Positions 52,927 to 53,454 of a stretch of 63,134 nucleotides of DNA are shown one piece after another. The position numbers and the translations under genes are program-made. How positions within the stretch are numbered: the first letter of the stretch is position 1; each line of letters begins with the position of its first letter. The notes below the pieces were generated by a model. The model had not been told where the DNA came from. It did not search any database and worked only from the letters and a program-made list of their open reading frames with translations. Source of the DNA: Blastocatellia bacterium. Lineage in GTDB: Bacteria; Acidobacteriota; Blastocatellia; RBC074. Location: the NCBI GenBank assembly GCA_043736395.1, contig JAYTCQ010000032.1:1-63134 (forward strand). The letters are read 5' to 3'.

Positions 52927-53454
52927 TTATACACAATTGAATATTGTTAGTGTAATTTGCGTACACCTTCTTGTAATATCCAAGCAACATCTGCCAACTG
53001 TTGCGAGGACGCATGCACCACCATTATTGCCAAGTGCGGGAAGTTGGCACCCGCTTGCTGCCGCCGCCGCCGCTGGTGCAACTACAGACATAACCACTGG
53101 CACAGCCAACGCAAATCCCATCCCAAGTCGTTTGAAAGTTTCTCGGCGTGACAGGCGTGGGCTTCCAACTGGCGGCGTCACACGCACTTCCAATAAATTC
53201 GCTTTTCCTAATCGTTCAAGTGCTAGCCAAACTGCTGCTTCATCTACGGCGGTATTGGCTTCCAATGCGACCAACTCGGCAATGTCCGTGACTGAATTTT
53301 TGCCATCGCAATATTTCCAGACCAGTGCGGCGGATTGATTCAGGCAGTGCGCGGCGTGGGTTTTTAGATCGTAGACCAACACTTCGTCGGGCATTTCGCG
53401 GGTGACCAAATCCTGATTTCTAGCTTTAGGAAAAGTTTGTTCATTGTTTGTCAT
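52927..53454 (-). CDS. PqqD/RRE domain fused to twin-arginine-like signal and Cys-rich core (candidate RiPP precursor fusion)
   Basis: AGGAG RBS then ATG 53454; EVLVYDLKTHAAHCLNQSAALVWKYCDGKNSVTDI...VWLALERLGKANLL (PqqD-like); LSRRETFK-LGMGFALAVPVVMSVVAP-AAAAAAS; core GCQLPALGNNGGACVLATVGRCCLDITRRCTQITLTIFNCV. Confidence 0.85.
   Translation of the reverse strand: MTNNEQTFPKARNQDLVTREMPDEVLVYDLKTHAAHCLNQSAALVWKYCDGKNSVTDIAELVALEANTAVDEAAVWLALERLGKANLLEVRVTPPVGSPRLSRRETFKRLGMGFALAVPVVMSVVAPAAAAAASGCQLPALGNNGGACVLATVGRCCLDITRRCTQITLTIFNCV

Follow-up and report, generated by a model that had tools for sequence, protein, structure and literature searches.

A candidate precursor of secreted disulfide-rich peptides with its own RRE domain and an internal twin-arginine motif in Blastocatellia

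We analysed a stretch of 63,134 nucleotides from a Blastocatellia bacterium (assembly GCA_043736395.1, contig JAYTCQ010000032.1, positions 1 to 63,134), hereafter the window. The source is a soil or sediment acidobacterium. One gene of the window encodes, in a single open reading frame (ORF), a recognition element (RRE) of the kind found in systems for ribosomally synthesised peptides with post-translational modifications (RiPPs), an internal export signal with a twin-arginine motif, and a six-cysteine tail. With moderate confidence, we interpret this gene as encoding a precursor in three parts from which a disulfide-rich mini-protein is secreted; this precursor has an RRE of its own and would follow the mechanism proposed below. 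The architecture, that of a RiPP-like or secreted mini-protein precursor, is real and probably new, and the mechanism is inferred. The three parts were found as an earlier note, made from the sequence alone, had described them: a PqqD-like domain, SRRETFK followed by a hydrophobic stretch and a run of alanines, and a six-cysteine tail. The reading given in that note is supported in part, namely for the layout, for the cassette-like core and for the knottin resemblance at the level of the family. The features of the gene are as follows.

52927–53454, minus strand: precursor ORF (RRE, internal export signal and six-cysteine core), 175 amino acids, stop codon included; the ATG is at 53454 and the stop codon at 52927–52929.
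53170–53427, minus strand: PqqD/RRE winged-helix domain, residues ~10–95, lasso-B1-like (Pfam, AlphaFold2, Foldseek).
53050–53157, minus strand: candidate internal export signal, residues 100–135, with R-L-S-R-R-E-T-F-K-R-L-G, an h-region (P119/S123/P127) and an A-rich AxA c-region.
52930–53049, minus strand: hypervariable core, residues 136–175 (40 amino acids), C-x11-C-x7-CC-x6-C-x9-C (sequence).
52675–53045, minus strand: non-homologous cassette, consisting of the core from residue 137 and the AT-rich 3' intergenic region (blastn against contigs L007 and L009).

Between close relatives the whole core is exchanged. Two contigs of Blastocatellia metagenome-assembled genomes (MAGs), L007 and L009, are syntenic with the window and share DNA identity of 80–85% with it through every neighbouring gene (blastn). 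This identity ends at position 53046 (residue 137), two codons past the A-rich c-region and the predicted cleavage site, and returns only at 52674, just ahead of the next gene, with none in between. The core is interpreted as a swapped cassette because DNA homology stops at this very place. The intergenic region 3' of the core has a GC content of 37.1%. In the ten nearest relatives the leader is 67–89% identical, whereas core identity is 15–27%, no more than shuffled sequences give. The cores of these relatives belong to an unrelated eight-cysteine class ending in S-W-[RK]-P. Thus the expectation of a conserved RRE and leader next to a variable core, put forward in the earlier note, is borne out, since the core is unrelated to those of the relatives, has no homologue, and is not a frameshift remnant. 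The last possibility was rejected by a tblastn search of all tails against positions 52600–53100, which produced low-complexity and cysteine matches only.

The eight-cysteine S-W-[RK]-P-like class was observed in proteins P0002–P0008, P0010, P0022, P0041, P0051 and P0058 and at loci L014, L015, L018, L022 and L025. Since this class is discrete, the cores form discrete families and are not random.

The N-terminal domain (residues ~10–95) is a member of the PqqD/RRE family with a predicted fold of the lasso B1 type. Residues 24–73 match PF05402 (PqqD) with 28.2 bits, above the gathering cut-off of 23.4. The AlphaFold2 model, built on an alignment of 114 sequences, has predicted local distance difference test (pLDDT) values of 93–97 for residues 10–95, with strands at 16–20, 24–29 and 34–39 and helices at 40–47, 55–66 and 72–84. 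The best matches in the PDB (Foldseek) are TbiB1 structures 5v1v and 5v1u (E-value 8.6e-4, TMt 0.73; for 5v1v, root mean square deviation (rmsd) 2.9 Å), and a second lasso B1 RRE, 6jx3, is matched with TMt 0.76. These are discrete lasso-peptide RREs solved together with their leaders. Both lines of evidence confirm the PqqD-like domain of about 90 residues that had been read from the sequence. The HPr-rel-A PqqD model did not match the precursor. Residues E24, L26, Y28, D29, A35, H36, L38, N39, W46 and G51 are invariant among the homologues.

Within the RRE, positions C37, C49 and D50 are near-invariant alongside the invariant H36 (53304–53349). C-D-G is a common PqqD motif, whereas the strand motif A-H-C-L-N seems confined to this precursor family. 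A redox or metal role of these residues is conceivable.

The RRE is followed by the candidate signal, S102-R103-R104-E-T-F-K108, with a hydrophobic stretch at residues 110–133 (mean Kyte-Doolittle value 1.9) and AAAAAAS. The h-region and c-region together span 24 residues, and the maximum hydrophobicity over 19 residues is 2.1. In 364 homologues the junction has the pattern [RG]-[LMVI]-S-R-R-E-[VAL]-[MIVL]-[RK]-[RK]-[LI]-G, where both arginines are invariant and the preceding position is serine or threonine in 321 sequences. P119 is invariant or nearly so, and S123 and P127 are near-invariant. The distance from the arginine pair to the first cysteine is narrowly distributed (median 32, 5th–95th percentile 30–39). 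A strict A-x-A at most 12 residues before the first cysteine is present in only 222 of the 364 members. Signals for twin-arginine translocation (Tat) consist of the motif S/T-R-R-x-F-L-K, an h-region of moderate hydrophobicity and a c-region with AxA. The protein of the window has counterparts of all three, and it is these motif matches alone that suggest Tat-dependent export. The location is not the N-terminal one of Tat signals: the arginines are residues 103–104 in the window, and the family median is 104.

A hidden Markov model (HMM) of the signal matched 103 ORFs in the window and 91 related loci, and none of the matches fell within the first 60 residues of its ORF. For this reason the fusion of the RRE with the signal is considered obligate. 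The combination of RRE, internal twin-arginine signal and cysteine-rich tail proposed in the earlier note is thus genuine, obligate and widespread.

One could also suppose that the gene makes two products, with an internal start before S-R-R giving an N-terminal Tat pre-peptide, and with the RRE made separately or acting in trans. Indeed, most members have L, M, V or I at position -2 relative to the arginine pair, M-S-R-R being found in some. However, ATG, GTG or TTG occurs at the codon before S-R-R in only 25 of 92 distinct genes, the leucine codons at this place are spread over TTA, CTG, CTA, CTC and CTT (CTG in the window), and no stand-alone ORF with a signal and a core is found among the 103 matches. 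An internal translation start is rejected on the basis of this codon usage and the absence of stand-alone ORFs, and we consider it hardly credible.

According to the AlphaFold2 model, the signal of the precursor is not a single helix. Residues 103–111 are helical, and residues 121–125 (V-M-S-V-V) form a beta-strand with pLDDT of about 70–75. The strand lies between the near-invariant P119 and P127, with S123 in its centre. The equivalent segment of a relative, modelled without the RRE, is a coil (pLDDT 56). A strand of five residues requires a partner, and leaders bind at the free edge of an RRE sheet. This modelled strand within the h-region, the one piece of evidence on the point and an indirect one, suggests that the RRE may mask or hold the signal in cis.

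The cysteine spacing of the core in the window is exactly 11-7-0-6-9, in the C-C-CC-C-C framework. The same framework occurs in 156 of the 195 six-cysteine members of the family, and the commonest spacing is C-x6-C-x5-CC-x3-C-x4-C (98 of 233). Cores of this commonest class are modelled with pLDDT 85–87. When this model was used in a structure search, all 11 matches in the PDB were inhibitor cystine knot (ICK) peptides with rmsd 0.4–1.8 Å; the named toxins omega-atracotoxin Hv1a (1HVW/1AXH), U3-scytotoxin (5FZV), O-superfamily conotoxins and nemertide alpha-1 (6ENA) superimpose at 0.4–1.4 Å over 21–28 columns with 28–45% identity. Pfam family UPF0506 matches tails of relatives with 26.9 bits (cut-off 23.2); the matches of Omega-toxin, Toxin_12 and Conotoxin to these tails are below their cut-offs. 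Hence an ICK knottin fold is predicted for the dominant core class. The KNOTTIN database lists 'bacterial knottins' only as predicted sequences without solved structures (PMC5753296).

The knottin claim of the earlier note therefore stands in part. It holds for the framework, which is the main one of six-cysteine members, and, at the level of prediction, for the commonest class. It does not extend to the core of the window itself, which is modelled with pLDDT 44–55, has no Pfam match at E-values up to 10 and thus no match to a knottin-family profile, and for which, when used alone, no homologues were found. The GC content of the core is 42.7% (28% at third codon positions) versus 52.0% (48%) for residues 1–136. 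A GC content as low as this occurs in about 6% of equal-sized windows of the neighbouring genes, and so the AT-richness of the core-coding DNA pointed out before is real but modest.

These properties of the core would also be expected if the copy in the window were a decayed, non-functional cassette, in which an ancestral eight-cysteine core of the S-W-[RK]-P class was replaced and the AT-rich hydrophobic tail is not a functional knottin. The core is the only six-cysteine one seen beside a gene for a MauE domain with thioredoxin domains (MauE-Trx, see below), while the nearest relatives are all of the eight-cysteine class. On the other hand, the reading frame is open up to the stop codon, the six cysteines are kept in the main framework of the family, with 'GRCC' as in P0315, and the identical protein of 175 residues recurs on four other contigs, of which the three shown come from different samples. 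The latter fact also indicates that the precursor is not an assembly artefact. Decay is, in our opinion, quite improbable.

The family is large. A word-indexed search yielded 968 relatives with the three-part layout, and a second one, seeded with a member of 160 residues, yielded 4409. An exhaustive phmmer search of 1.84 billion cluster representatives found 6204 clusters (50% identity) at E-values up to 1e-3 and 3771 at E-values up to 1e-10. Essentially all retrieved members (155–230 residues) share the layout, which at these numbers is no product of chance. Cys, Gly, Ser, Thr, Asn and Pro are abundant in the tails. The number of cysteines is even in 228 of 232 sequences and in 135 of 139 (odd in just four of either set), and in this the tails look like disulfide-bonded secreted peptides. 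Apart from six-cysteine cores, members have 8, 10, 12, 14 or 18 cysteines, some of them in tandem knottin-like units. When one genome per species was scanned, 444 loci emerged, nearly all in Acidobacteriota MAGs (Blastocatellia, Pyrinomonadaceae, Chloracidobacterium), and the family comes mostly from Blastocatellia. No published description of an RRE, internal signal and cysteine-rich tail in one protein was found in full-text literature, a search that did not cover subscription journals.

Two or three tandem knottin-like units (12–18 cysteines) or, rarely, cysteine-free tails rich in lysine or proline are exemplified by P0118, P0019, P0035, P0375 and P0303. The cysteine-free tails stand behind the same RRE and signal.

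The genes around the precursor include candidate modification enzymes. Counts below refer to 41 related loci with full flanks of 7 kb.

51612–52646, minus strand: PF14907 (NTP_transf_5) nucleotidyltransferase (Pfam E-value 3.6e-21), present at 33 of 41 loci.
49890–51419, minus strand: MauE/DoxX membrane domain fused to two thioredoxin-fold domains (AhpC-TSA/Redoxin, MauD/ResA-like), present at 8 of 41 loci.
48889–49686, minus strand: HprK-related P-loop kinase-like protein with the Walker A motif PGRSYSGKTS, present at 35 of 41 loci.
53682–55544, minus strand: upstream gene for a WecA/MraY-type GT4 enzyme with a CoA_binding_3 domain; a same-strand array for glycan synthesis, reaching 62832, ends with this gene.

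In the window the nucleotidyltransferase, MauE-Trx and HprK-like genes all lie downstream of the precursor on the same strand. The usual order at related loci is kinase, precursor, nucleotidyltransferase, the kinase gene usually being directly upstream of the precursor. By BLASTP the kinase-like and nucleotidyltransferase genes are orthologous across loci, and kinase orthologues are present in all loci examined. The HprK-like protein scores 51.6 bits (E-value 7e-14) with TIGR04352 (HprK-related kinase A), below the equivalog cut-off of 200. Sequence searches with the kinase, the nucleotidyltransferase or the family profile against solved structures gave nothing significant. The presence of both candidate enzymes in the same operon supports the earlier suggestion that the precursor is modified in the cytoplasm. 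Precursor genes stand in tandem, two or three per locus, at six loci. Another five contain orphan precursor copies with no enzymes, several of them in genomes with a complete locus elsewhere. Thus the gene has the usual attributes of RiPP precursors: a conserved leader, a variable core, co-located candidate tailoring enzymes and multiple precursor copies.

The MauE-Trx gene is associated with cysteine-rich cores. All 11 precursor genes of loci with MauE have 8- or 12-cysteine cores, whereas loci without MauE-Trx have mostly six-cysteine cores (26 of 37). The association with cores of at least eight cysteines has a Fisher p-value of 3e-5, with phylogeny not corrected for. The six-cysteine core beside MauE-Trx in the window fits a recent replacement of the core.

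The upstream array encodes the WecA-like GT4 enzyme, an epimerase, a PMT-like GT-C protein, GT1 and three methyltransferases. GT4 genes are found within 7 kb of the precursor at 18 of the 41 loci.

This setting is relevant to the main rival of the precursor reading, namely an uncleaved bitopic membrane protein. Here the twin arginines and the hydrophobic segment would form a signal-anchor with the N-terminus inside, the RRE-like domain would be a cytoplasmic adaptor by which the kinase and the nucleotidyltransferase are tethered or regulated at the membrane, for instance in exopolysaccharide assembly, and the cysteine-rich tail would be a surface ectodomain. The hydrophobicity of the segment suffices for a transmembrane helix, glycan clusters surround the loci (GT4, Wzy_C, epimerases, PMT-like GT-C), the strict A-x-A is missing from many members, and some tails are cysteine-free. 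However, one would sooner expect of a released peptide than of an ectodomain that it is exchanged wholesale from strain to strain, starting exactly past an AxA-type site. Moreover, the distance from the arginine pair to the first cysteine varies as little as it does in cleavable signals, free knottins are what the cores resemble, and the enzyme-less orphan copies behave like extra substrates. Since cassette turnover begins at the predicted cleavage site and orphan extra copies exist, this rival is disfavoured, and we consider it unlikely.

The precursor reading can be set against several known systems. Among the closest are lasso peptides. The best structural matches of the N-terminal domain are lasso B1 proteins (TbiB1 5V1V; 6JX3), and the paeninodin and pseudomycoidin lasso clusters likewise combine three types of gene, for an RRE, an HPr-kinase homologue and a PF14907-type nucleotidyltransferase. 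However, lasso B1 proteins bind a separate leader, whereas here the RRE is fused to its substrate. There is no conserved C-terminal serine, and the product would be disulfide-rich rather than a lariat. Neither a lasso cyclase nor a B2 protease, nor a radical-SAM enzyme or YcaO, was found among the ORFs of the window scanned with Pfam, and no lasso cyclase (Asn-synthase-like) or B2 protease is annotated in the related loci. Because the defining enzymes are absent from the scanned ORFs and from these annotations, the gene is not regarded as part of a lasso cluster.

In its manner of working the system is most like a RiPP precursor with a signal peptide. A published precedent for a RiPP with cysteines and a signal peptide is provided by the bufferins (DUF2282 / BUF_6/12Cys RiPPs). 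Their precursors have a general-secretion signal peptide, are cleaved by signal peptidase and yield a small folded periplasmic product, and their clusters encode an RRE-containing partner and a DoxX-type oxidoreductase (PMC11626156). In bufferins, however, the signal is an N-terminal one of the general secretion (Sec) pathway, the RRE resides on a separate DUF2063 protein and the modification is made by an MNIO enzyme, in contrast to the internal twin-arginine signal, the RRE in cis and the HprK-like kinase with a nucleotidyltransferase observed here.

NHLP/Nif11-type RiPP precursors and conotoxin precursors have a large conserved N-terminal leader, a short cleavage motif, a hypervariable core and several paralogues per genome. 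The candidate precursor shares this plan of a conserved leader domain, a variable core and multiple copies, but its leader is an RRE rather than an enzyme-derived leader or a pro-region, and, unlike in the NHLP/Nif11 systems, the predicted cleavage site is an AxA site of signal peptidase rather than a GG site used with a PCAT transporter. With the eukaryotic ICK peptides named above the family has the C-C-CC-C-C framework in common. It differs from them in its bacterial origin and precursor organisation, and the loops of the core in the window (11-7-0-6-9) are longer, its fold being predicted only with low confidence. Finally, MauA, the six-disulfide subunit of methylamine dehydrogenase, is exported by Tat and needs MauD and MauE. 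The locus resembles this system in combining a small disulfide-rich polypeptide, a twin-arginine signal and MauE with thioredoxin-fold MauD partners. Here, however, a single protein unites MauE with two thioredoxin domains, a hypervariable peptide takes the place of the enzyme subunit as cargo, and MauE occurs in only about 20% of loci. What is unusual compared with known RiPP precursors is the RRE in cis and the export signal between the RRE and the core.

Cleavage, export, modification and disulfide formation might proceed as follows. The RRE would fold in the cytoplasm and remain there, as a built-in docking and holding module that recruits the kinase and the nucleotidyltransferase to the precursor, and it possibly holds the h-region (P119-V-V-M-S-V-V-A-P127) as an added beta-strand. 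The signal would then insert as a hairpin and the short hydrophilic core would be translocated, with Tat as the likeliest route and insertion by Sec/YidC as a possible one. Tat is able to carry small unstructured hydrophilic peptides. Signal peptidase I would cleave past the Ala-rich c-region. The core would be oxidised outside the cytoplasm, with MauE-Trx helping where disulfide patterns are complex, and the product would be a compact cystine-stabilised peptide, an inhibitor cystine knot in the main class of the family. The turnover of cores between strains resembles that of bacteriocins and conotoxins, and by this analogy a role in antagonism, inhibition or recognition is indicated.

Several observations weigh against this scheme. 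Firstly, the curated Tat model TIGR01409 did not match the signal segment of the window, to which an N-terminal methionine had been added; segments of relatives treated in the same way score 17.3 (the commonest core class), 16.2 and 15.5 bits around the cut-off of 16.7, and no model of Pfam, whose library includes TAT_signal, matched any tested segment, that of the window among them. The score of the commonest class, just above the cut-off, speaks for Tat. The twin arginines could be a positive-inside topology signal only. Secondly, the core of the window is an outlier, being hydrophobic and orphan, with a low-confidence model and no knottin-profile match. Thirdly, a pair of an HPr-kinase homologue and a nucleotidyltransferase phosphorylates and then glycosylates lasso precursors (PMC8498205). 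However, the known lasso kinases act on a C-terminal serine, which is present in only 21 of the 364 family members. Fourthly, since the loci lie inside glycan-synthesis clusters, the kinase and the nucleotidyltransferase might act on sugars and not on the peptide.

The first of these observations, together with the internal position of the signal, makes Sec/YidC insertion a live alternative. It keeps the precursor logic, but the arginines would be only positive-inside determinants, the core would cross unfolded and unmodified, and the RRE would have no role in the timing of export. The h-region is fairly hydrophobic, and disulfide-rich cargo is normally oxidised after Sec export, both of which agree with this route. 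It would not explain, however, why S-R-R-E-phi-phi-[RK] and [RK]-[LI]-G, including the serine or threonine before the invariant arginines, are conserved far beyond the need for charge. Also, partners of the MauE/MauD type are classically tied to the Tat substrate MauA. We regard Sec/YidC export as possible, although rather unlikely, and Tat is retained in the proposed mechanism.

A broader form of the proposal is that the family is a very large unrecognised class of bacterial mini-proteins that includes genuine knottins. The cis-acting RRE would grip the h-region of the signal as a beta-strand, like a Tat proofreading chaperone, until the kinase and the nucleotidyltransferase have acted; tailoring would be coupled to Tat export via the internal signal, and the cores would diversify like venom toxins. 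As a whole, this is offered tentatively and must be called doubtful.

Class-independent mining for RiPPs uses RREs as its hallmark, on the assumption that the precursor they act on is a separate one. If the proposal is true, an RRE fused to its substrate via an export signal is a new precursor logic, missed by current tools for finding precursors. Acidobacteriota are rarely cultivated, and the family (at least 6,200 clusters at 50% identity) would supply bacterial scaffolds of the knottin type with thousands of core variants, useful in peptide engineering and in asking how ICK folds are oxidised in bacteria. The precursor makes it possible to test whether export can be driven by a twin-arginine signal that is internal and preceded by a folded domain, and the locus, to test the role of pairs of an HprK-like kinase and a PF14907 nucleotidyltransferase outside lasso clusters.

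Two candidate expression signals were observed upstream of the precursor gene.

53461–53464, minus strand: Shine-Dalgarno box GGAG, 6 nucleotides 5' of the ATG, by direct reading of the sequence.
53485–53513, minus strand: sigma70-like promoter TTTTCA-17-TATAAT, 10 of 12 matches in a consensus scan (pattern match only).

A longer ORF initiated at TTG is unsupported, and this start is disfavoured because homologues share the same start methionine. No convincing terminator was seen 3' of the gene. The sequencing runs that contain the locus are all DNA metagenomes, and none gives RNA evidence. A perfect 18-nucleotide palindrome with a 2-nucleotide loop (53550–53587) lies just 3' of the GT4 gene and 5' of the precursor promoter. 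It is probably a terminator or processing hairpin, although it lacks a T-tract.

The intergenic regions of the operon are rich in repeats. A 43-nucleotide inverted repeat (51431–51473 / 51570–51612; 93% complementary, 96 nucleotides apart) composed of CACGAAGGA-like sub-repeats fills the region between the nucleotidyltransferase and MauE-Trx genes. Nested inverted repeats occupy positions 49695–49886 between the MauE-Trx and HprK-like genes. Pieces of the latter recur with 84–94% identity 5' of the precursor gene in the syntenic contig L007 (7704–7975), and the nested repeats look like a REP-like mobile intergenic element.

In the upstream array, positions 56589–57977 (minus strand) encode a membrane protein of 462 residues with a weak PMT (protein O-mannosyltransferase / GT-C) match. 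In L007 a different gene of this array carries the PMT_2 annotation, and Wzy_C genes are found in other loci. Such neighbours raise the idea that Ser/Thr-rich exported cores may be glycosylated outside the cytoplasm.

Beside the locus, a sigma54-dependent response regulator (44761–46140, plus strand) is adjacent to a stand-alone receiver domain (44155–44553, minus strand). The regulator, which is conserved in L007, scores 382 bits with the PEP-CTERM-box regulator model TIGR02915, below the cut-off of 502.6. Finally, positions 29385–32741 (minus strand) encode a protein of 1118 residues that unites an alpha/beta-hydrolase and a NACHT NTPase with an FGE-sulfatase-like domain at the C-terminus. 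This STAND-type architecture is unusual and has no relation to the precursor.

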